Below are positions 31,337-42,883 of a stretch of 64,000 nucleotides of DNA, in pieces (the first letter of the stretch is position 1; each line of letters starts with the position of its first letter). Position numbers and translations under genes: made by a program. The stretch comes from Micromonosporaceae bacterium (GTDB taxonomy: Bacteria; Actinomycetota; Actinomycetes; Mycobacteriales; Micromonosporaceae): the NCBI GenBank assembly GCA_036375165.1, contig DASUSI010000178.1, forward strand, positions 43,086 to 107,085, given 5' to 3'. The notes under the pieces were generated by a model, which ran no database searches, was not told where the DNA came from, and worked only from the letters and a program-made list of their open reading frames with translations.

Positions 31337-32884
31337 TCAGGTGTTGCGCGGGAAGCTCAACGTGACCCCGTCCGAGGGGAACCGGGCCGCGTTCTGCCCC
31401 GCCGAACCGGCCGAGGGTGTCTCGGGTGCCGGCTGGTGAGGCCAGCGGCTGGTCACCGCCTTTGTGCGGGTGTAGAAGCGCACCCCGTCCGGCCCGTACG
31501 CGTGGGCGTCACCGAACAGGGACGACTTCCAGCCGCCGAACGAGTAATACGCCACCGGGACCGGGATCGGGACGTTCACCCCGACCATTCCCACCTCCAC
31601 CTCGTACTGGAACCGGCGGGCGGCCGCGCCGTCGCGAGTGAAGATCGCGGTTCCGTTCCCGTATCGGTTCGTGTTCACGAGGTCGGCAGCCTCCTGGTAG
31701 GAACCGACCCGCACCACTGACAGCACCGGTCCGAAGATCTCGTCGGTGTAGACGCTCATTTCTGGGCGTACCCGGTCAAATAGCGTGGGACCGAGCCAGA
31801 ACCCGTCCGCGGCGCCGTCGACCGGGTGCTGGCGGCCGTCCACCGCCAGTTCCGCGCCGTCGGCGAGGCCGGCGTCGAGGTAGCCGAGCACCCGGTCGCG
31901 GTGCGCGGCGGTGATCAACGGGCCCATCTCGCAGCCTGGGCGGATGCCGTCACCCACGTGCAGTTCCGAGATCCGTTTCTTGATCTTCGAGACCAGGTCG
32001 TCGGCGACGGGCTCCACGGCCACCACCACGGAGACCGCCATGCAGCGTTCTCCAGCGGACCCGAAGCCAGCGGAGACCGCAGCGTCCGCGGTCAGGTCCA
32101 GGTCGGCGTCGGGGAGTACCACCATGTGGTTCTTGGCGCCGCCGAGTGCCTGGACCCGCTTCCCGTGGGCGGCGGCGGTCTGGTAGATGTACCGCGCGAC
32201 CGGTGTGGAACCCACAAAGGACACGGCCTTGACCGTCGGGTGTTCCAGGATCCGGTCCACCGCCTCCTTGTCGCCGTGGACCACGTTGAACACCCCGTCA
32301 GGGAGGCCGGCCTCGGCCCACATCCGCGCGATCGCGAGTGACGCCGAGGGGTCCTTCTCGCTGGGTTTGAGCACGACGGAGTTGCCGCAGGCGATCGCGA
32401 CCGGCGCGAACCACATCGGCACCATGGCCGGGAAGTTGAAGGGTGAGATGATCGCGACCACGCCCAGTGGTTGCTGGATCGAGTACACGTCCACGCCGGT
32501 GGAGGCGTTCTCGGTGTAGCCACCCTTGAGCAGATGCGGCACGCCGCAGGCGAACTCGACCACTTCCAGGGCTCGGTGCACCTCGCCGGCCGCGTCGCTG
32601 AGCACCTTCCCGTGCTCGGCGGTGATGATGCCGGCGAGTTCGTCGCGGCGGGCACGGAGCAGCTCGCGGAACCCGAAGAGAACCCCAGTGCGCCGGGCGA
32701 GCGAGGCGTCCCGCCATTGCGGGAACGCCCGCGCCGCCGCGTCGACGGCGGCGTCCACCTCGGCCGGTCCTGCGAAGTCGACCTGGCCGGCGAGGGCGCC
32801 GGTGGCCGGATTGAAGATGTCACCGGTACGGCCCGTCGGGCCGCTCCAGGGTTTGCCGTTGACCCAGTGAGTTACGCGGTTCAT
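31337..32884 (-). CDS. mmsA: CoA-acylating methylmalonate/malonate-semialdehyde dehydrogenase
   Basis: HWVNGKPW...IFNPATG N-terminus, catalytic region FGSAGERCMA (the mmsA-type Cys context). About 515 aa. ATGA start/stop overlap with the upstream aminotransferase gene. Confidence 0.85.
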   Translation of the reverse strand: MNRVTHWVNGKPWSGPTGRTGDIFNPATGALAGQVDFAGPAEVDAAVDAAARAFPQWRDASLARRTGVLFGFRELLRARRDELAGIITAEHGKVLSDAAGEVHRALEVVEFACGVPHLLKGGYTENASTGVDVYSIQQPLGVVAIISPFNFPAMVPMWFAPVAIACGNSVVLKPSEKDPSASLAIARMWAEAGLPDGVFNVVHGDKEAVDRILEHPTVKAVSFVGSTPVARYIYQTAAAHGKRVQALGGAKNHMVVLPDADLDLTADAAVSAGFGSAGERCMAVSVVVAVEPVADDLVSKIKKRISELHVGDGIRPGCEMGPLITAAHRDRVLGYLDAGLADGAELAVDGRQHPVDGAADGFWLGPTLFDRVRPEMSVYTDEIFGPVLSVVRVGSYQEAADLVNTNRYGNGTAIFTRDGAAARRFQYEVEVGMVGVNVPIPVPVAYYSFGGWKSSLFGDAHAYGPDGVRFYTRTKAVTSRWPHQPAPETPSAGSAGQNAARFPSDGVTLSFPRNT

Positions 32885-34176
32885 GCCGTCAGCTCCTTCC
32901 GTACGGCTGCCAACGCGTCGGTGAGGATCCCGACGGCTTCGTCGACCTCGGAGGAGGTGACGGTCATCGGCGGGGCGAGCCGGATCGCGTTGCCGTACAG
33001 GCCGCCCTTGCCGACCAGAAGCCCCCGGGAGCGGGTTTCCTCCAGCAGCAGCGTGGCCGCTGCTGGGCTGGGCTCGGTGCCGCCGGGTGCCACCAGCTCG
33101 ATGCCGACCATCAGGCCCATCCCGCGGACGTCACCGACCAGGTCGTTTTCGGCCGCGGCGGTACGCAGGCCGCCAATCAGTTGCGTGCCCCGCTGTGCCG
33201 CGTTGCCCTGCAGGTCGTGGTCGAACAGGTAGTCAAGGGCAGCCTTCGCGGCGGTGGCGGCGATCGGATTGCCACCGAACGTGGAGATCGAGTTCGCGGG
33301 CAGGCAGTCCATCAGGTCCGGGCGGGCCACCAGGCCACCGATCGCGATGCCGTTGCCGAGTCCCTTGGCGAACGTCATCGCGTCCGGTGTGACGCCATGT
33401 GCCCCGATGCCCCAGAAATGGGCTCCGGTACGTCCCCACCCGGTCTGGACCTCGTCGGACACGAACAGGATGCCGTACTCGTCGAGGATCTGTTTGAAGG
33501 CGGCGAAAAGTCCAGGCGGCGGCACGGTGAACCCGCCGACGCCCTGGATCGGTTCGGCGATCATGCACGCCACGTCACCGGCCGTGGTGGTCTCGATGAT
33601 GTTGCGTAGATCGTCGGCGCAGGCCCGGATGTAGTCGTGGTCGGAGAGGTTGCGGAACGGGCTGCGGTAGCGGTAGCCGCCATGCACATAGCTGACTTGC
33701 ACCGGGCTGAGCGACGTAGCGGACCAGCCACGGTTTCCGGTGATGGCGACGGTGGCGAACGCCCGCCCGTGGTAGGAGTTGCGCAGCGCCAGGACCTGGT
33801 TGCTGCGCCGGTGTTGGGTGGCGAGCATCAGCGCCGTCTCGTTCGCCTCGGTGCCGGAGTTGGTGAAGAACACCTTGGCGTCCTCGATGCCGGACAGCCG
33901 GGCGATCTTCTCGGCCAGCTCGACCTGGTGCCGGATCAGGTACAGGGTGGAGGTGTGAAGAATCCCGGTGTCGAGCTGGGCACGGATCGCGTCGCTGATT
34001 TCCGCGATGTCGTACCCGATGCCGTTGGTCAGGATCCCGGCGAAGAAGTCGAGGTACTCGGTGCCTGAGTCGTCGCTGACCCGGCGCCCCGACCCGCGGA
34101 CGATTTCGATCGGCTGTTCGTAGTAGAGGGCAAGCCAGGAGGGCATAACCGCACGGTGGCGGGCAAGCAAGGTCAT
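32881..34176 (-). CDS. class-III (omega) aminotransferase, candidate beta-alanine aminotransferase
   Basis: YLDFFAGILTNGIGY, ...FVSDEVQTGWGRTG..., TFAKGLGNG (PLP-Lys). ATG 34176 preferred over track start 34572. Confidence 0.85.
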   Translation of the reverse strand: MTLLARHRAVMPSWLALYYEQPIEIVRGSGRRVSDDSGTEYLDFFAGILTNGIGYDIAEISDAIRAQLDTGILHTSTLYLIRHQVELAEKIARLSGIEDAKVFFTNSGTEANETALMLATQHRRSNQVLALRNSYHGRAFATVAITGNRGWSATSLSPVQVSYVHGGYRYRSPFRNLSDHDYIRACADDLRNIIETTTAGDVACMIAEPIQGVGGFTVPPPGLFAAFKQILDEYGILFVSDEVQTGWGRTGAHFWGIGAHGVTPDAMTFAKGLGNGIAIGGLVARPDLMDCLPANSISTFGGNPIAATAAKAALDYLFDHDLQGNAAQRGTQLIGGLRTAAAENDLVGDVRGMGLMVGIELVAPGGTEPSPAAATLLLEETRSRGLLVGKGGLYGNAIRLAPPMTVTSSEVDEAVGILTDALAAVRKELTA

Positions 34177-34286
34177 GGCCCGAGTCTCATCCCGCCGAGG
34201 GGAACCCAACCATGGACGAAATGCATCCAAACCAACGCTGGGTCGATACAGTGTGTCCGCCAGCCTGGTGACGCTGGGAGGTGGCC

Positions 34287-35954
34287 GTGTACCCGACCGT
34301 CTCGGAAGTGCTGACACTCCCGCTGATTCGTCGCGCCGGAGCCCGGGTGGTGGCGGGTTCGGTGGGGCTCGACCGCCGGGTGCGCTGGGCGCACGTGGCC
34401 GAAGTCGCCGACATCGCACATCTGCTGCGGGGTGGTGAGCTGGTGTTGAGCACAGGGATCGCACTCCCGGACGACGACGCGGGGTTGAGCGGTTACGTCG
34501 CCGACCTGGCCCGCGTCGGTGCGGCGGGTCTGGTGGTGGAGTTGATCCGTCGCTGGCAGCACGACGTGCCACCGGCGTTGAAGGCCGCGGCCGACCGGCA
34601 CGGTCTGCCGGTGGTGACCCTGGCCCGGGAGATCCGATATGTGAGCGTCTCGGAAGCGGTGGTCTCCATGATCATGGACGCTCAGGTGGCCGAGTTGCGG
34701 GCGGCCCAACAGGTGCACGAGAGGTTCACCGCGCTCACCGTGACCGGGGCCGAACCCGCGGCCATCCTGCAGGAGGTGGCCCGGATGTCCGGGCTACCGG
34801 TGGTACTGGAGACTCTCGCCCACCACGTCCTCGGCTATCACGCGGCCAGCCAGCCGCCCGCCGACCTGCTCGCCGACTGGGAACGGCGGTCGCGAGCGGT
34901 GACCCTGCCGGGGCGTACCGCGTACCATCCGGGCGCCGGCTGGCTCGCCACCATCGTGGGGGCGCGCGGGGATGACTGGGGCCGGTTGATCCTGATGTCC
35001 CCGGACGAGCCGCCGCAGCGCCACGTGGTGATGCTGGAAAGAGCGGCTGACGCACTCGCTTTGAACCGGTTGCTCGCCCGGGACCGGGACAGCCTGGAAC
35101 GGCAGACCCACCGGACCCTGCTGACCGCGTTGCTCTCGCCGGGTCCCGCCCCGGCAGACCTCGACGCCCGCGCCGCCGCGCTGGGGGTACGGCTGTCCGG
35201 CCGGCAACTGGTGGGGATGGCGGTACGCCCCCACCCGACGCCGAGCGCGGTCGGTGACCGACCTTCGCTGGGAACCCACGAGGTGCTGCGTGATCTGGCC
35301 GAGGCGACCGCGCTGGCCGCCCGCCGGGCAGGTCTGCCGGCGCTGGTCGGGATCGTTGACGACACCAGTGTCCAGGCGCTGCTGTCGTCGCCGGGCACCA
35401 CCACGGCCGATGCTCAGCTGCGGCGGATGGCCCGGGAGGTGCGGGCGGTCGCCGCCGCGTCGCGGTCGCTGCGAGGGTTGCCAGTGGTGGTCGCGGCCGG
35501 CAGTGCCATCTCGCCGGGGCCCCACGCGATCTCCGCGGCCGGGAGGAGCCTGCGGGAAGCGGTGCACGTCGCCGGTGCGGCAACCCGCCAGTCCGAGCCG
35601 GACACCGTCGCCGAACGTGGATACCACTCCCTGGCCGACGTGCGGGTCCGGGGCCTGTTGCACCTGTTGCGCGACGATGAGCGTCTGGACGCCTTCGTGG
35701 AACGGGAACTCGGTCCGCTGCTGTCAGGACAGACCCCACAGGCCGACCGGCTGCTGGAGGTGCTTCGCGGCTACTGTGAGCACGGCGGCAACAAGTCCGC
35801 CGCCGCGGTGGCGGCACACACGTCCCGTACCGCGTACTACCAGCAGTTGGCGCGGGTGGAGCAGGTCCTCGGGGTACGCCTGGACGACCCTGAGTCGGTG
35901 CTGTCGCTGCATGTGGCGCTGCTCGCGCTGGAGGCGTCCACTCAGGCCCTCTGA
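34287..35954 (+). CDS. PucR family transcriptional regulator
   Basis: N-terminal purine-catabolism PurC-like domain (VSEVLTLPLIRRAG...RVRWAHVAE...LLRGGELVLSTG). C-terminal PucR HTH (...NKSAAAVAAHTSRTAYYQQLARVEQVLG). Start GTG 34287 (GGGAGG 5 nt upstream) or GTG 34281. Confidence 0.8.
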   Translation: MYPTVSEVLTLPLIRRAGARVVAGSVGLDRRVRWAHVAEVADIAHLLRGGELVLSTGIALPDDDAGLSGYVADLARVGAAGLVVELIRRWQHDVPPALKAAADRHGLPVVTLAREIRYVSVSEAVVSMIMDAQVAELRAAQQVHERFTALTVTGAEPAAILQEVARMSGLPVVLETLAHHVLGYHAASQPPADLLADWERRSRAVTLPGRTAYHPGAGWLATIVGARGDDWGRLILMSPDEPPQRHVVMLERAADALALNRLLARDRDSLERQTHRTLLTALLSPGPAPADLDARAAALGVRLSGRQLVGMAVRPHPTPSAVGDRPSLGTHEVLRDLAEATALAARRAGLPALVGIVDDTSVQALLSSPGTTTADAQLRRMAREVRAVAAASRSLRGLPVVVAAGSAISPGPHAISAAGRSLREAVHVAGAATRQSEPDTVAERGYHSLADVRVRGLLHLLRDDERLDAFVERELGPLLSGQTPQADRLLEVLRGYCEHGGNKSAAAVAAHTSRTAYYQQLARVEQVLGVRLDDPESVLSLHVALLALEASTQAL

Positions 35955-36044
35955 CCGGCCCTTCTGACAGTTTGTCCATTTCGGACCGGGATTCCGGACA
36001 CTCTGCCACTGCCTTGTGCCACGCCGTCCGCCCACCATGCCGAA

Positions 36045-37584
<1,540 letters not shown>

Positions 37585-37592
<8 letters not shown>

Positions 37593-38427
37593 CATCGTTC
37601 GCGCCGGCCTGGTACAGCAGAAGTGGACCGGCGACAAGCAATCCATGATCGACAACGCGGTGTCCGCGATCGAGTCCGCGGCTTCCCAGGGCGCCCAGGT
37701 GGTGTGCCTACAGGAGCTGTTCTACGGGCCGTACTTCTGCCAGGTGCAGGACGCCGACTTCTACTCCTACACCGAACAGATCCCGGACGGGCCGACCACC
37801 ACGCTGATGTGTGAGCTGGCGCGGCGGCACAACATGGTCCTGATCGTTCCGATGTACGAGCAGGAACAGCCAGGCGTCTACTACAACACCGCCGCGGTGA
37901 TCGACGCCGACGGCCGTTACCTCGGCAAGCACCGAAAGAATCACATTCCGCAGGTGAAAGGCTTCTGGGAGAAGTTCTACTTCCGCCCGGGAAACCTGGG
38001 ATACCCGGTGTTCGACACTGCCGTGGGCAAGATCGGCGTCTACATCTGCTACGAGCGGCACTTCCCCGAGGGCTGGCGGGCGCTTGGCCTGGCCGGCGCC
38101 CGGATCGTGTTCAACCCGTCGGCCACCAGCCGCGGCCTGTCGGAGTACCTGTGGCGGTTGGAACAGCCCGCTGCGGCGGTCGCCAACGAGTACTTCGTCG
38201 GCACCATCAACCGGGTCGGTGTGGAGCCGCTCGGTGACAATGACTTCTACGGTCAGTCGTACTTCGCCGACCCGCGCGGCCAGTTCGTCGGAGCCGCCGC
38301 CTCGGACACTGAGGAGGAGGTCGTGGTCCGGGACCTGGACATGGGGTTGCTCGCCGAGGTCCGCGACCTGTGGGCGTTCTACCGGGATCGTCGACCCGAG
38401 ACGTACGACTCGCTGACCACCCCATGA
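37585..38427 (+). CDS. nitrilase-superfamily carbon-nitrogen hydrolase, beta-ureidopropionase-like
   Basis: CLQELF (Glu), HRKNHIP (Lys), ICYERHFPE (Cys) catalytic triad contexts. 8-nt overlap with the permease gene. Confidence 0.8.
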
Positions 38428-38440
38428 CCGGAGGCGACCG

Positions 38441-39844
38441 ATGAGCATTCTGATCAAAGGCGGCACCGTCATCTCCGCCACCGGGGCGCATGCGTCGGAC
38501 GTGCTGGTCTCAGGCGAGCGGATCGCCGCCATCGCAGCCCCCGACGCCGGCCTCACCGAAGCGTGGCAACAGCGGGCCGACACCGTGATCGACGCCGCCG
38601 GCAAGTATGTGCTGCCCGGCGGTATCGACGTGCACACCCACATGGAGATGCCGTTCGGGGGCACCCACTCGGTGGACACGTTCGAAACCGGCACCCGGGC
38701 CGCCGCGTGGGGCGGCACCACCACGATCATCGACTTCGCGGTGCAGCAGAAAGGACAGACGCTGCTGGCCACTATGGACCGCTGGCACCAGAAGGCCGAC
38801 GGCAACTGCGCCATCGACTACGGCTTCCACATGATCATCGCGGATGTCAACGAGTCCACGCTCAAGGAGATGGACGCCTGCGTGGCCGCCGGGGTGAACA
38901 GCTTCAAGATGTTCATGGCCTACCCCGGGGTGTTCTACGCCACGGACGGGGAGATCCTGCTGGCGATGCAGCGGGCCGCCGAGAACGGTTCCCTGATCAT
39001 GATGCACGCCGAGAACGGCATCGCGATCGACCAACTCGTGGCGCAGGCGCTGGCGAAGGGCCAGACCGACCCGGTGTATCACGGGCTGACCCGCCCGGCC
39101 GAACTGGAGGCGGAGGCCACCCACCGGGCGGCGGTGCTGGCCAAGGTGACCGGCGCGCCGCTGTACGTCGTGCACCTGTCCTCCGAACCGGCGCTGGCTG
39201 CGGTCCGCGCCGCCCGCGACACCGGGCAGAACGTATTCGCCGAAACCTGCCCGCAATACCTCTACCTGTCCATCGAGGACATGGCCAAGCCTGACTTCGA
39301 GGGCTCCAAGTACGTCTGCTCGCCGCCGGTGCGCCCCCGGGAGCATCAGGACACGCTGTGGCAGGGGCTGCGCACCAACGACTTGTCGGTGGTGTCCACG
39401 GACCACTGCCCATTCTGTTTCAACGAGCAGAAGGAACTGGGTCGCGGGGACTTCTCCAAGATCCCCAATGGGCTGCCCGGGGTCGAGCACCGGATGGACC
39501 TGCTGCACCAGGGTGTGGTGGCCGGCGAGCTGTCGCTGGCCCGCTGGGTGGAGGTGGCGTCCACCACCCCCGCCCGGATGTTCGGTCTCTACCCCCGCAA
39601 GGGCGTGATCGCCGCCGGCTCCGACGCCGACATCGTGGTGTACGACCCGAAGGCGACTCAGATCCTGTCGGTGGCCACCCACCACATGAATGTGGACTAC
39701 TCGGCGTACGAGGGCATGGAGATCACCGGAAAGGTGGCCGCCGTGCTGTCCCGGGGCCGGGTGGTGGTCGCCGGGGACGAGTTCCACGGCAGTGCCGGCC
39801 ACGGCAGGTTCTTGAGCCGCGATCTGAGTCAGTACCTGCACTGA
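38441..39844 (+). CDS. hydA: dihydropyrimidinase (D-hydantoinase)
   Basis: LIKGGTVISA..., metal ligands GGIDVHTHMEMPFGG, FKMFMAY (carboxylated Lys), MMHAENG, VVHLSS, VSTDHCPF. Confidence 0.9.
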   Translation: MSILIKGGTVISATGAHASDVLVSGERIAAIAAPDAGLTEAWQQRADTVIDAAGKYVLPGGIDVHTHMEMPFGGTHSVDTFETGTRAAAWGGTTTIIDFAVQQKGQTLLATMDRWHQKADGNCAIDYGFHMIIADVNESTLKEMDACVAAGVNSFKMFMAYPGVFYATDGEILLAMQRAAENGSLIMMHAENGIAIDQLVAQALAKGQTDPVYHGLTRPAELEAEATHRAAVLAKVTGAPLYVVHLSSEPALAAVRAARDTGQNVFAETCPQYLYLSIEDMAKPDFEGSKYVCSPPVRPREHQDTLWQGLRTNDLSVVSTDHCPFCFNEQKELGRGDFSKIPNGLPGVEHRMDLLHQGVVAGELSLARWVEVASTTPARMFGLYPRKGVIAAGSDADIVVYDPKATQILSVATHHMNVDYSAYEGMEITGKVAAVLSRGRVVVAGDEFHGSAGHGRFLSRDLSQYLH

Positions 39845-39899
39845 CCCGGCCGACCCCGCGGGACGGCAACTCGGCGGGGCGATGAATTCTGGAGGAGCC

Positions 39900-40898
39900 A
39901 TGGACTTCGGTGTGGTGATGCAGACGGACCCGCCGGCCCGGGACGTCATCGAGACGATGCGGGTCGCGGAGGACTGCGGGTTCCGCTACGGCTGGACGTT
40001 TGACTCCTGCGTGCTGTGGCAGGAGCCGTTCGTGATCTACTCGCAGGTCCTGTCGGCCACCCGGTCGATGACGGTGGGCCCGATGGTGACCAACCCCAGC
40101 ACCCGGGACTGGTCGGTGACGGCGTCCCTGTTCGCCACGCTCAACGAGATGTACGGCAACCGCACGGTGTGCGGCATCGGGCGGGGCGACTCGGCGAACC
40201 GGGTGGTCGGCCGGCCACCGGCCACGCTGGGGCACCTCGCCGAGGCGATGAGGGTGATCAAGAATCTCGCCGAAGGCCGGGAAGCCGTTATGAACGGCAC
40301 CACCGTGCGGATCCCGTGGGTGCGGGACGGCCGGCTGGGGATCTGGATGGCGGCGTACGGTCCCAAAGCGCTCAAGCTGGTCGGGGAGCAGGCCGACGGG
40401 TTCATCCTGCAGACCGCCGACCCGGACATCGCCCGGTGGACCATCCAGTCGGTACGCCAAGCCGCCACCGACGCCGGACGCGACCCGGACGCGATCACGA
40501 TCTGCGTGGCCGCTCCCGCGTACGTGGGGGAGGACCTGGACCACCAGCGGGAGCAGTTGCGCTGGTTCGGTGGCATGGTCGGCAACCACGTCGCTGACCT
40601 GGTGGCCCGCTACGGCACCGACGGTCCAGTGCCCCGGGCGCTCACCGACTACATCGAAGGACGCAGGGGATACGACTACTCGCACCACGGCAAGCCGGGC
40701 AACCCGACGACCGACTTCGTTCCGGACGAGATCGTCGACCGGTTCTGCCTACTGGGACCGGTGTCGGCTCACGTCGACCGGCTCCAGGAACTGGTCGAGA
40801 TCGGGGTCGACAACTTCTCGATCTACCTGATGCACGACCAGAAGGACAAGACCCTGTCGGCGTACGGCGCGGATGTGATCGGCCGGTTCGCCGGCTGA
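39900..40898 (+). CDS. LLM-class (luciferase-like) F420-dependent oxidoreductase
   Basis: MDFGVVMQTDPPARDVIETMRVAEDCGFRYGWTFDSCVLWQEP...GPMVTNPSTRDW...GIGRGDSA pattern is typical of actinobacterial F420-dependent LLM enzymes. Last gene of the permease-hydrolase-hydantoinase string. Confidence 0.7.
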   Translation: MDFGVVMQTDPPARDVIETMRVAEDCGFRYGWTFDSCVLWQEPFVIYSQVLSATRSMTVGPMVTNPSTRDWSVTASLFATLNEMYGNRTVCGIGRGDSANRVVGRPPATLGHLAEAMRVIKNLAEGREAVMNGTTVRIPWVRDGRLGIWMAAYGPKALKLVGEQADGFILQTADPDIARWTIQSVRQAATDAGRDPDAITICVAAPAYVGEDLDHQREQLRWFGGMVGNHVADLVARYGTDGPVPRALTDYIEGRRGYDYSHHGKPGNPTTDFVPDEIVDRFCLLGPVSAHVDRLQELVEIGVDNFSIYLMHDQKDKTLSAYGADVIGRFAG

Positions 40899-40902
40899 CG
40901 GC

Positions 40903-41982
40903 TCACTGGCCGACCCCCTCAGCGCTTCGACCCGCTGGCTCGGCGGTGGCTCGGGGCGCCGAGGGACTGCCGATCCGGCGGCCCGGCAGCGCGGCGATTC
41001 CGACCGCCAGCAGCGTGACAGCCGCACCGGCGACGGTGCTGGCCTGCAGCCGCGCCCCCGCGGCGGGCGCGACCAGGTCGAGGGCGATCGCGCCGACGAG
41101 CTGGCCCGCGATGGTGGACAGACCCAGAAGCAGAACCCCGATCCAGCGCACCACAACCGCCGCGACCCAGATGAACACCACCCCCAGCGGGCCACCCAGG
41201 TACAGCCAGGGTTCGGTCGGTAACGCCGTTGGCGTCCCACGGACGGTTCGTACCACCAGCCAGGAAACGGTGAGCAGTGCGGTCCCGGCGGCGAAGTTGA
41301 CCAGCGCGGCGGTCAGCGCACTCTGGGCCGCCGCGCGGACCTGCCCATTCACCGCCTGTTGCACCGCGATTCCGGCTCCGGCGACCAGCGGGAGCAGGAC
41401 CAGCCACAGCGCGACCCCGCTTTGGATTCGGTCGGACATCGCAGCCGTCACAGCGGCGAGTGCCAGCCCGGCCCCGACGACCCGCGGCCAGGTCAGCGGC
41501 TTTCGGCCGCCCGGCCCCAGGCCGGCCCGGTCCACCAGCAGCGACGATCCGGTCTGCCCGGCGACCAGGGCGACCGAGAAGATCGCGACGCCGATCACGC
41601 CGACGGTCAGGCTCTGGGTGGCGACCAGGAACCCGCCGCTGATCCCGCCGAGGCACTGCCAGAACCGCAGCGAGCCGTGCCGTAACGCCGCGCCGAGCCG
41701 GGCCACGCCGTTGCGGGCGGTGGGCAGCAGCGGCACGAGCAGCACCAGCAGCGCCAGTCCGATGCCGAACGAGATCAGCGCGGCCAGTACCCCGTCCCCG
41801 AGGCGCACCCCGAGTTCCCCGTTGATCCGCGACTGCACCGCGAACGCCGCGCCGCTGAGCGCGGACAGCAACACACCGAGAGTCTTTTCCGATCGGGTGA
41901 CCGGGCGGGATGCGTGGGGTCCGACGGTCTCGGCAGGGCGCTGCCCGATGGCGGTACGGCCCAGGGCCGGGTGGAATCCCAC
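40903..41982 (-). CDS. DMT-superfamily transporter (duplicated DUF606/YdcZ-type)
   Basis: Two repeats of ...AVQSRINGELGVRLGDGVLAALISFGIGL... / ...AVQQAVNGQVRAAAQSALTAALVNFAAGT... GTG 41982 has AGGGAGGA 7 nt upstream; track start 42054 would overlap the upstream gene. Confidence 0.65.
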   Translation of the reverse strand: MGFHPALGRTAIGQRPAETVGPHASRPVTRSEKTLGVLLSALSGAAFAVQSRINGELGVRLGDGVLAALISFGIGLALLVLLVPLLPTARNGVARLGAALRHGSLRFWQCLGGISGGFLVATQSLTVGVIGVAIFSVALVAGQTGSSLLVDRAGLGPGGRKPLTWPRVVGAGLALAAVTAAMSDRIQSGVALWLVLLPLVAGAGIAVQQAVNGQVRAAAQSALTAALVNFAAGTALLTVSWLVVRTVRGTPTALPTEPWLYLGGPLGVVFIWVAAVVVRWIGVLLLGLSTIAGQLVGAIALDLVAPAAGARLQASTVAGAAVTLLAVGIAALPGRRIGSPSAPRATAEPAGRSAEGVGQ

Positions 41983-42034
41983 CCCGCCATCCTCCCTCGT
42001 CAGTGGTCCTGGGTTGCGGCTGGTCGGGGGGTCG

Positions 42035-42883
42035 TCACGACCGGTCCCCGTCAAGGTGCAGCTCGGGGATCTCGTCCCAGTGCAGCAGGGCGATCAGTTC
42101 CCGGTGGTGGGCGCTGAGCCGGTGCAGCGCCAGGCGCCTGCCCTTGGGCAGCTGGCTGGCCGCCCACGCCAGGTGCCGCAAACCGTCGAGGTCGATGAAG
42201 TGCAACTCGCCGAGGTCCAGGTGACTGTCGCCAGCGTCGTCGGTCCGCTCGTTGAGCTGTCTCAAAGCGGTGAGGAAGACGTCCATGGTCCCCGCGTCGA
42301 CCGCGCCCTGCACCCGAAGACCCGGCGGGTCGAAACTCGGGAAGATCTGCAATCCGCCGTGGCTGTAGAGCGGGTCGACACCCAACTGACCAGGGTGCAA
42401 CCGGTCCAGCCCGGCCTTCCCCACATCACGGCGGTCGTATTGGCAGACCACCATCGCCGGCAGCCTGGCCAGCGCCGCGTGCAGGCCTTTCTCGTACGCC
42501 ACGAGCCGGCCCATGCCGGGCGTGTGTCGCAACGCCCAGTTCATCTCGGTGGTGACCCGCAGGCCACGCCATCCCGCACCGAGGGCCGCCTCGACCTCCT
42601 GGCGCAGGATCCGGAACAGCCGGTCCGGCTGGAACCTGTCGCCGGACAGGTACACGTCACCCACGGACGCCACGCCCAACTGACCGGACGCCAGATGTCG
42701 CCGCCACTGGTCGCGTTCCAGGAAACCGAACACGCCAGCGGCGCTTTCCGGGTCGGCGTAGATGTACAGCACGCGCTCGTCGCGCCCCAAGCCGTCCCCG
42801 ACGAATGCCGACAGCACCGCCTGGCGTTCGGCCAGGCCGTTTGGGACCAGACACAGGTGGTCTCCGTGTGTGGCCTGGCTCAC
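42035..42883 (-). CDS. MEDS domain protein with C-terminal STAS-like domain
   Basis: N-terminal GDHLCLVPNGLAERQAVLSAFVGDGL...VLYIY (MEDS pattern). C-terminal ...LRVQGAVDAGTMDVFLTALRQL...HLDLGELHFIDLDGLRHL... (STAS-like). Confidence 0.6.
   Translation of the reverse strand: MSQATHGDHLCLVPNGLAERQAVLSAFVGDGLGRDERVLYIYADPESAAGVFGFLERDQWRRHLASGQLGVASVGDVYLSGDRFQPDRLFRILRQEVEAALGAGWRGLRVTTEMNWALRHTPGMGRLVAYEKGLHAALARLPAMVVCQYDRRDVGKAGLDRLHPGQLGVDPLYSHGGLQIFPSFDPPGLRVQGAVDAGTMDVFLTALRQLNERTDDAGDSHLDLGELHFIDLDGLRHLAWAASQLPKGRRLALHRLSAHHRELIALLHWDEIPELHLDGDRS

Follow-up and report, generated by a model that had tools for sequence, protein, structure and literature searches.

A cluster of seven genes at positions 31337-40898 of the window, that is, of the whole 64,000-nucleotide stretch of DNA analysed here, follows the gene logic of reductive pyrimidine catabolism (the Pyd pathway) but has a luciferase-like (LLM) F420-type oxidoreductase with a TIM-barrel fold in the operon instead of a dihydropyrimidine dehydrogenase. 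This LLM protein is encoded at 39900..40898 on the + strand and belongs to family TIGR03842. Comparative genomics together with a fold assignment suggests that it is probably an F420H2-dependent uracil/thymine reductase and an unrelated stand-in for dihydropyrimidine dehydrogenase. The original prediction, which was made from the sequence of the window, had already proposed an F420-type LLM enzyme for the reduction of uracil or thymine at the 5,6 double bond; the gene context supports this proposal, all of the computational checks suggested along with it turned out in its favour, and the chemistry is predicted from this context.

The known Pyd pathway comprises PydA or PreT/PreA, PydB, PydC, a beta-alanine aminotransferase, and a malonate-semialdehyde dehydrogenase or reductase. 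The window cluster shares with it a dihydropyrimidinase scoring above the equivalog cut-off and a permease of the nucleobase type, together with a putative beta-ureidopropionase-like decarbamoylase of the CN hydrolase family, an aminotransferase of class III, and a semialdehyde dehydrogenase that is CoA-acylating. Every Pyd step but the first hence has a candidate in the window, which leaves one step without an enzyme and one enzyme without a step. In the pathway we propose, uracil or thymine would be imported via the NCS1 permease, and the LLM protein would pass a hydride from F420H2 to C6, with a proton going to C5, to yield dihydrouracil or dihydrothymine. F420H2 would be regenerated from NADPH by the NADPH:F420 reductase Fno. 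The dihydropyrimidinase would open the ring, the CN hydrolase would remove the carbamoyl group to release beta-alanine or beta-aminoisobutyrate, and the divergently encoded aminotransferase and CoA-acylating semialdehyde dehydrogenase would lead to acetyl-CoA or propionyl-CoA. A PucR-family regulator probably controls both transcription units.

The genome (assembly GCA_036375165.1, Micromonosporaceae bacterium) has 4.77 Mb in 185 contigs and is 97% complete. No PreA or PydA was found in it; the best match to the PreA model NF006183 scored 22.4 bits against a cut-off of 335. The lack of preT, preA, and pydA, which had been noticed within the cluster, thus extends to the genome as a whole. The only real DHO_dh domain of the genome belongs to a PyrD-like gene. 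A weak second DHO_dh match was considered as a dihydropyrimidine dehydrogenase and rejected, being FabK/NMO-like instead. The LLM gene is the only TIGR03842 gene in the genome. FbiC (514.5 bits), CofD (374.8), CofE (265.8), and Fno (233.6) each exceed the cut-off of their model, whereas the canonical Fgd was not found in the genome, the best match to the Fgd model reaching 122 bits against a cut-off of 420. The F420 genes by which the original prediction could be judged are thus present for synthesis, as is Fno for reduction. As Fno is present and the canonical Fgd is not, reduced F420 would come from NADPH. Two regions of the genome are listed with the Fgd-model observation, C185:13518-14162 and C9:3365-4306.

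Linkage and phyletic distribution

At least 593 stretches in a one-genome-per-species collection encode a relative of the LLM protein. The locus counts given here refer to the best 80 of them (67-80% identity). These are spread over several actinobacterial families, with members in Micromonospora, Lentzea, Amycolatopsis, Kutzneria, Streptosporangiaceae, Streptomyces, an Acidimicrobiales genome, and others. A dihydropyrimidinase with at least 50% identity lies beside the LLM gene in all 80 loci. The gap from the end of the dihydropyrimidinase gene to the LLM gene has a median of 18 nucleotides (nt) and is 150 nt or shorter in 76 loci. The CN hydrolase is found in 78 loci, the NCS1 permease in 47, the aminotransferase in 42, and the malonate/methylmalonate-semialdehyde dehydrogenase (MMSDH) in 10; a PucR homologue (56-65% identity) occupies the same position in 25. 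Neither PreA nor PreT occurs in any of the 80 loci. The aminotransferase and MMSDH are both absent from the flanks in 37 of the 80, and the Streptomyces-type loci have the aminotransferase with no MMSDH within 10 kb.

The gene order is more variable among more distant relatives. Actinobacterial LLMs at 44-50% identity exhibit several arrangements: NCS1-LLM-CN hydrolase-aminotransferase-dihydropyrimidinase-MMSDH in L135, LLM-CN hydrolase-aminotransferase-dihydropyrimidinase-MMSDH without the permease in L142 and L143, and dihydropyrimidinase-CN hydrolase-LLM on a single strand in L134. A metagenomic LLM gene at 43% identity overlaps the CN hydrolase gene, and another at 39% identity is located between an amidohydrolase gene and a CN hydrolase gene, downstream of an ABC transporter. 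A gene set that is kept while its order varies is typical of genes coupled by function and not of synteny passed on by descent. The edge of the functional group is marked by two further relatives (37-39% identity), which sit in unrelated gene contexts. The cluster around a 39%-identical LLM in L131 (L131:3728-16022) is an expanded one. Its genes encode an ABC transporter of the NMT1 type, an amidohydrolase, the LLM, and a CN hydrolase, as well as an FAA hydrolase, a second LLM, two CoA-transferase subunits, a second amidohydrolase, and a class-III aminotransferase.

We also surveyed an even sample of 401 Actinomycetota genomes with completeness of at least 90%. The LLM is present in 88 genomes, a dihydropyrimidinase-model match in 124, and PreA in 2, neither of which carries the LLM. 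Among the 88 LLM-positive genomes, 85 have a dihydropyrimidinase, and the three exceptions are assemblies of 350-600 contigs. The co-occurrence of this LLM subfamily with dihydropyrimidinase and CN hydrolase, on which the original prediction could be judged, is thus almost complete across Actinomycetota. With CofD scored as present at an E-value of 1e-60 or better, it is found in 240 of the 401 genomes: in 84 of the 88 LLM-positive ones versus 156 of the 313 others. In the LLM-positive genome G342, FbiC is intact and cofD is frameshifted; in G126, also LLM-positive, FbiC is intact and cofD is cut at a contig end. The counts include genomes flagged as unpublished, namely G088 for LLM and dihydropyrimidinase, G120 for dihydropyrimidinase, and G001, G048, G088, G120, G316, and G398 for CofD. 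Dropping these genomes shifts each count by at most 6 and leaves the conclusions the same; all loci described here were taken from other genomes.

A dihydropyrimidinase-model match without the LLM occurs in 39 genomes, and 20 of these were sampled. In all 20 loci, the hydrolase is only 33-59% identical to the window enzyme, and the flanks are devoid of a CN hydrolase. The neighbours in seven scanned loci are XdhC, a YgeW-like carbamoyltransferase, the FAD subunit of a molybdo-dehydrogenase, other amidohydrolases, and unrelated genes. In the actinobacterial loci L102, L105, and L109, the dihydropyrimidinase match stands beside XdhC, a YgeW-like gene, a molybdo-dehydrogenase FAD subunit, or a MobA-like gene. 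Clusters of this type look less like pyrimidine catabolism than like the reductive uric-acid cluster with HyuA (PMC12507026). We considered the 39 LLM-less genomes as counter-examples and rejected them, since the 20 sampled hydrolases are distant and the seven with scanned neighbours lie in purine-type or other contexts, not in Pyd clusters. The highest-scoring unsampled members of the 39 (G287, G388, and G309) are assemblies of 270-320 contigs. One locus of genome G109 (L111:8099-11646) has an LLM of a different subfamily (28% identity) directly downstream of a dihydropyrimidinase homologue (48% identity).

The partners of the LLM protein vary in kind as well as in order. In some loci, an M20 'hydantase' carbamoylase gene lies between the dihydropyrimidinase and LLM genes. 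In L151 (L151:6607-10295), the dihydropyrimidinase is followed by one open reading frame (ORF) of 764 aa that joins an M20 'hydantase' (TIGR01879) to the LLM. Whether this ORF is a genuine fusion or the artefact of a frameshift, the M20 enzyme takes the place of the CN hydrolase in this variant. As single ORFs of M20 and LLM (P0155 and P0160) are possible artefacts, they were used as adjacency evidence only. 'Fusion' proteins of dihydropyrimidinase and LLM were rejected as evidence; the dihydropyrimidinase part of P0152 spans model positions 180-401 only, and they are probably frameshift or gene-calling artefacts. The TIGR03842 domain is fused to a C-terminal isochorismatase-family hydrolase in more than 100 protein clusters, the members of which have about 600-650 residues. 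The fused TIGR03842 domain of P0209 scores 535.9 bits and is 60% identical to the window protein. The hydrolase part is weakly similar to RutB (39.9 bits), and its family includes RutB, biuret amidohydrolase, and N-carbamoylsarcosine amidase. In a rough tree, the fused clade is nested inside the core clade that has the window protein. Two of the three fusion neighbourhoods examined have the fusion followed by ATP-dependent HyuA/HyuB-type hydantoinase subunits. These loci could encode a fully non-orthologous three-step pyrimidine route, or the pathway of another cyclic ureide. In two metagenome contigs (L150:10001-17165 and L152:10001-17834), the fusion gene precedes a small unassigned ORF (about 190 aa) and the HyuA/HyuB genes. 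Sigma-54 activator genes adjoin some of the fused forms, an indirect sign of non-actinobacterial carriers.

The ring opener beside the LLM is therefore either a dihydropyrimidinase or HyuA/HyuB, and the decarbamoylase is a CN hydrolase, an M20 enzyme, or a fused isochorismatase-family hydrolase. As the LLM is constant while the ring opener and the decarbamoylase vary and the aminotransferase and MMSDH are dispensable, the LLM would act on the cyclic ureide itself. This pattern argues that the LLM tracks the ring-handling enzymes and not beta-alanine metabolism.

The same pattern bears on the alternative offered in the original prediction, namely that dihydropyrimidines or hydantoins are taken up as such and then hydrolysed; the LLM would in that case have an accessory or unrelated redox role and be a passenger of the operon. 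The hydrolases alone suffice for the use of such compounds, and the permease is Mhp1-like. A passenger would not have kept its linkage in all 80 loci and in 85 of the 88 genomes, through repeated reshuffling of the genes, down to 39% identity, and in a fusion of the decarbamoylase type. Nor does this alternative account for an F420 enzyme of the reductase clade being the partner found most constantly with the hydrolases for ring opening and decarbamoylation. We give it little credence and favour the reading in which the LLM protein is the ring reductase.

Fold and active-site residues of the LLM protein

The LLM protein matches TIGR03842 with 576.8 bits (cut-off 295.45) over model positions 1-327 of 329. 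Its sole Pfam match is PF00296, and it has no DHO_dh (PF01180) domain. The AlphaFold2 model has a predicted local distance difference test (pLDDT) score of 90.9, with residues 240-280 being less confident. In a Foldseek search, ranks 1-8 are all Mer, with template modelling (TM) scores of 0.75-0.80; these are followed by FGD1, FGD2, and Adf, and LLMs dependent on flavin mononucleotide (FMN) rank lower. By phmmer, the LLM protein matches Mer with 89.6 bits, Adf with 46, and Fgd1 with 36. Among the F420-dependent LLMs, Mer falls in the 'reductase' branch, the members of which use F420H2 (PMC6279831). Judged from alignment and predicted structure, the LLM protein is Mer-like in fold and probably in cofactor, but not itself a Mer. 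It scores below both Mer equivalog cut-offs (NF002619, 119.9 versus 276 bits; TIGR03555, 112 versus 348.7 bits).

Residues of Mer from M. jannaschii (jMer; bioRxiv 10.1101/2023.09.18.558202) were mapped onto the LLM protein by sequence alignment, and conservation was assessed in 99 dihydropyrimidinase-linked family members. By alignment, the LLM protein appears to share with Mer (PDB 1Z69 and 8QPL) a PxVTNP loop beneath F420, an aspartate at the end of strand 4 (Asp96 in Mer and Asp103 here), and a carboxamide at the end of strand 6 (Gln177). The F420 loop, compared by sequence only, reads P60-G61-V62-T63 in jMer, with a non-prolyl cis-peptide, and P67-M68-V69-T70-N71-P72 in the LLM protein, so that Gly61 is replaced by a methionine. 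V69, T70, P72, and Q177 are invariant. Two positions differ from Mer: the catalytic Glu6 is Val12 in the LLM protein and His36 is Ser42. The jMer E6Q mutant keeps 0.4% activity (bioRxiv 10.1101/2023.09.18.558202). Asn235-His236, Arg261, and Asp265 are invariant in the family and have no counterpart in Mer. The invariant residues of the 99 members include R75, R101, D103, W146, Y159, Q177, D180, N235, H236, R261, D265, and D282, and S42, W46, S104, and C289 are at least 95% conserved. We conjecture that such polar residues suit a small heterocycle with two carbonyl and two NH groups. The less confident segment 240-280 hosts the invariant R261 and D265 and the well-conserved Y264, Y266, and H269; in the predicted structure it may form a substrate lid. 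The position of the D-H motif after strand 2, aligned against Mer (His36) only, reads Asp41-Ser42 in the LLM protein. The His36 position of Mer is what we take to be that of the catalytic histidine of Adf and Fgd (His39/His40).

The Ser42 substitution and the linkage data bear on a different role for the LLM protein, namely that of an F420H2-dependent malonate/methylmalonate-semialdehyde reductase. The LLM protein would then be an analogue of PydE of the extended Pyd pathway that detoxifies the semialdehyde by forming 3-hydroxypropionate or 3-hydroxyisobutyrate, and the ring would be reduced by another enzyme or not at all. We regard this role as quite improbable. The LLM gene is present in the 37 of 80 loci that lack a nearby aminotransferase and MMSDH, whereas the dihydropyrimidinase is in all 80, and it coexists with the aldehyde-consuming MMSDH in the window and in L135, L136, L142, L143, L145, and L147. 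The protein is nearer to Mer than to Adf or Fgd (89.6 versus 46 and 36 bits), it has a serine at the position of the presumed catalytic histidine of Adf and Fgd, and a semialdehyde reductase would leave the first step of the pathway without an enzyme. The points in its favour are that the Streptomyces-type loci have an aminotransferase and no MMSDH within 10 kb, that F420 LLMs include the alcohol and carbonyl oxidoreductases Adf, FGD2, and phthiodiolone ketoreductase (PMC6279831 and PMC8498797), and that PMC12507026 cites, as its reference 10, an extended Pyd pathway with such an enzyme.

A second enzymatic role, flavin-dependent and oxygen-using cleavage of the uracil ring in the manner of RutA, would have the amidohydrolase process the ureido product. 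RutA is also luciferase-like, and the more than 100 clusters of TIGR03842-isochorismatase fusions mirror the RutA-RutB pair, the similarity to RutB being weak at 39.9 bits. Nevertheless, the RutA model TIGR03612 is absent from the 19 NCBIfam matches of the LLM protein at an E-value of 0.001 or better, and TIGR03860, which describes FMN monooxygenases of the NtaA/DmoA type to which RutA belongs, gives 18.7 bits only. The top structural and sequence relatives are all F420 enzymes, and the family tracks F420 biosynthesis. A profile search of the window genes revealed no flavin reductase gene in the cluster, and oxidative cleavage would leave the dihydropyrimidinase of every locus without a substrate. 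A RutA-like reaction is thus very improbable, and reduction of the ring by F420H2 is the reaction that we prefer for the LLM protein.

Gene layout of the cluster

Window genes were defined from the ORF listing and from profile searches against Pfam and NCBIfam. Both agree on seven genes in 31337-40898, at the places where the original prediction had put them. The MMSDH gene (31337..32884, - strand) encodes a CoA-acylating enzyme of 515 aa, which matches TIGR01722 with 706.8 bits (cut-off 448.5) and the Pfam family Aldedh. Its start codon ATG is preceded by GGAAGGAG. The stop codon of the aminotransferase gene and the start codon of the MMSDH gene overlap as ATGA, the motif from which the original prediction had read translational coupling.

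The class-III aminotransferase is GabT/PuuE-like and encoded at 32881..34176 on the - strand (431 aa from ATG 34176). It matches Pfam Aminotran_3 with 291 bits, and the NCBIfam profile search returned no equivalog above cut-off. Its best solved relatives are gamma-aminobutyric acid (GABA) transaminases at about 200 bits, and its substrate is probably beta-alanine or beta-aminoisobutyrate. The open frame of this gene extends to 34572 (563 codons), and profile alignments start about 130 residues in. Judged from where the alignments begin and from the in-frame ATG, the start is likely ATG 34176 and the ORF of 563 codons is likely over-extended. The frame is open for about 130 codons upstream of this probable start (34177-34572) and crosses the start of the PucR gene, so that a naive call of 563 aa would make two divergent genes overlap by about 290 nt.

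The intergenic region 34177..34280, of which we read the sequence, separates the aminotransferase-MMSDH unit from the divergent unit that runs from PucR to LLM, and it is presumed to be regulatory. It contains no match to the sigma-70 consensus, which is uninformative for a high-GC actinobacterium. The PucR-family regulator (34281..35954, + strand, 557 aa) matches Pfam PucR with 124 bits and HTH_30 at its C-terminus with 55 bits. The original prediction had called this regulator divergent; it is so relative to the aminotransferase-MMSDH pair, but it points in the same direction as the permease-to-LLM genes.

The NCS1 nucleobase:cation symporter (36045..37592, + strand, 515 aa) matches TIGR00800 with 397 bits (cut-off 353) and Pfam Transp_cyt_pur. 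Its sole solved relative is the hydantoin permease Mhp1 (127 bits), and its best NCBIfam equivalogs are allantoin permeases, which score below cut-off. The permease gene overlaps the CN hydrolase gene (37585..38427, + strand) by 8 nt. The latter encodes a beta-ureidopropionase-like member of the nitrilase superfamily with 280 aa and 230 bits for Pfam CN_hydrolase. Among solved proteins, it is nearest to Drosophila beta-alanine synthase (212 bits) and human beta-ureidopropionase (187 bits), with N-carbamoylputrescine amidase (185 bits) close behind, and no NCBIfam equivalog above cut-off was found by profile search. The dihydropyrimidinase/D-hydantoinase (PydB) gene follows at 38441..39844 on the + strand. 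Its product of 467 aa matches the equivalog TIGR02033 with 599.6 bits (cut-off 393), a model that takes in D-hydantoinases besides dihydropyrimidinases.

The permease and the breadth of TIGR02033 both bear on whether the LLM acts on another cyclic ureide, such as a substituted pyrimidine or an unsaturated hydantoin-like or purine-derived ring, in a cluster that merely looks like Pyd. The permease is nearest to Mhp1 and to the allantoin permease equivalogs that remain below cut-off, TIGR02033 covers D-hydantoinases, the fused relatives adjoin the ATP-dependent hydantoinases HyuA/HyuB, and, in a related idea, a ring derived from uric acid has been proposed as the target of an F420 LLM (PMC12507026). 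Against this, the aminotransferase and the TIGR01722 MMSDH fit beta-alanine and beta-aminoisobutyrate, which are the specific products of uracil and thymine, and the CN hydrolase is nearest to true beta-ureidopropionases. The phylum would otherwise have no PydA for its widespread dihydropyrimidinase cluster. Another ureide is therefore an unlikely substrate, and we retain uracil and thymine as the probable ones.

The LLM gene is the last of the + strand genes. Its open frame begins at 39882, and the ATG at 39900, which has GGAGGA 6 nt upstream and coincides with the start of the family alignment, is likely the start codon and gives a protein of 332 aa. With this start, the gap of 55 nt to the dihydropyrimidinase gene that had been reported is correct. 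As the next gene downstream (40903-42054) is convergent and encodes a YdcZ-type exporter, the LLM gene closes the unit.

Comparison with known systems and meaning

The dihydropyrimidine dehydrogenases known to date are the NADPH-dependent PydA, the NADH-dependent PreTA, and the ferredoxin-dependent PydAc. All of them retain the same FMN domain with iron-sulfur (Fe-S) clusters, and it is the electron-input module alone that varies (PMC7332683). What the LLM protein would have in common with these variants is the reduction of uracil or thymine at C5-C6 and an electron donor matched to the redox metabolism of the host. It differs from them in its fold, in having no Fe-S cluster, and in the proposed direct transfer of a hydride from a diffusible deazaflavin. 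Hence, it would work alike without being a member of their family. Of the Pyd dehydrogenase genes, PydA, PreA, and PreT have no representative in the genome and were found in 2 of the 401 genomes of the phylum.

Three other F420-type enzymes invite comparison. LxmJ, an LLM that depends on F420H2, reduces dehydroalanine, in which the C=C bond is conjugated to a carbonyl (PMC8498797). In mureidomycins, the uracil ring is reduced at C5-C6, and genetic evidence shows that this requires SSGG-03002/NpsU, a putative F420/FMN oxidoreductase (PMC10714638). An F420 LLM from Chloroflexota was proposed from gene context to be the 'yanthine reductase' of a reductive uric-acid pathway (PMC12507026). These enzymes serve antibiotic tailoring or purine catabolism, none of them is linked to Pyd, and they are likened to the LLM protein by description, not by sequence. 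They demonstrate that LLMs using F420H2 are able to reduce carbonyl-conjugated C=C bonds, and that F420-type enzymes are implicated genetically or by context in the reduction of uracil-like rings.

Several observations speak against the LLM protein being a uracil/thymine reductase that uses F420H2. In vitro assay of SSGG-03002/NpsU failed (PMC10714638). The permease, the aminotransferase, and the CN hydrolase are assigned at family level only. The related genomes are not independent, so that the locus and genome counts overstate their statistical weight. In the rough tree, the dihydropyrimidinase-linked LLMs do not all form one clade apart from LLMs of other contexts, and the LLM-isochorismatase fusion mirrors the RutA plus RutB pair of oxygenative uracil cleavage. 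Two genomes are also at odds with F420 use. G188 has no FbiC and only a remnant of cofD (the first 102 residues, C9:71137-71439), located about 6 kb upstream of the dihydropyrimidinase gene and 13 kb from the LLM gene, and in G375 neither FbiC nor CofD was found; both genomes are 95-96% complete. F420 is then either not a strict requirement, or the system is on its way out in these lineages. They may have lost F420 synthesis recently while keeping the LLM.

The full-text literature yielded no paper that links an F420 LLM to the Pyd pathway, though older work on the LLM family could hold a remark on this neighbourhood, and a 2021 review of F420 lists no role in the Pyd pathway. No published description of this pathway variant, experimental or bioinformatic, was found in the literature searched.

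Canonical dihydropyrimidine dehydrogenase occurs in 2 of the 401 genomes versus 85 with an LLM-bearing dihydropyrimidinase, so that the start of pyrimidine breakdown in these soil and host-associated bacteria is an open gap. On balance, we lean slightly towards a general reading, in which TIGR03842 represents a new class of dihydropyrimidine dehydrogenases, namely single-domain and Fe-S-free F420H2:uracil/thymine oxidoreductases. They would be the usual entry into pyrimidine catabolism in Actinomycetota and the constant core of a modular system with two ring openers and three decarbamoylases, and F420 would have a role in central nucleotide turnover. Bacterial F420 is known mainly from antibiotic biosynthesis, from the reduction of xenobiotics and prodrugs, and from glucose-6-phosphate oxidation. 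If the proposal is true, a housekeeping catabolic role would be added for this coenzyme, and the widespread 'hypothetical equivalog' family TIGR03842 (F420_CPS_4043) would gain a function. A small uracil/thymine reductase free of Fe-S clusters could then serve as a biocatalyst. The cluster would also be a plain example of a textbook pathway whose first step has been taken over by a non-homologous enzyme.

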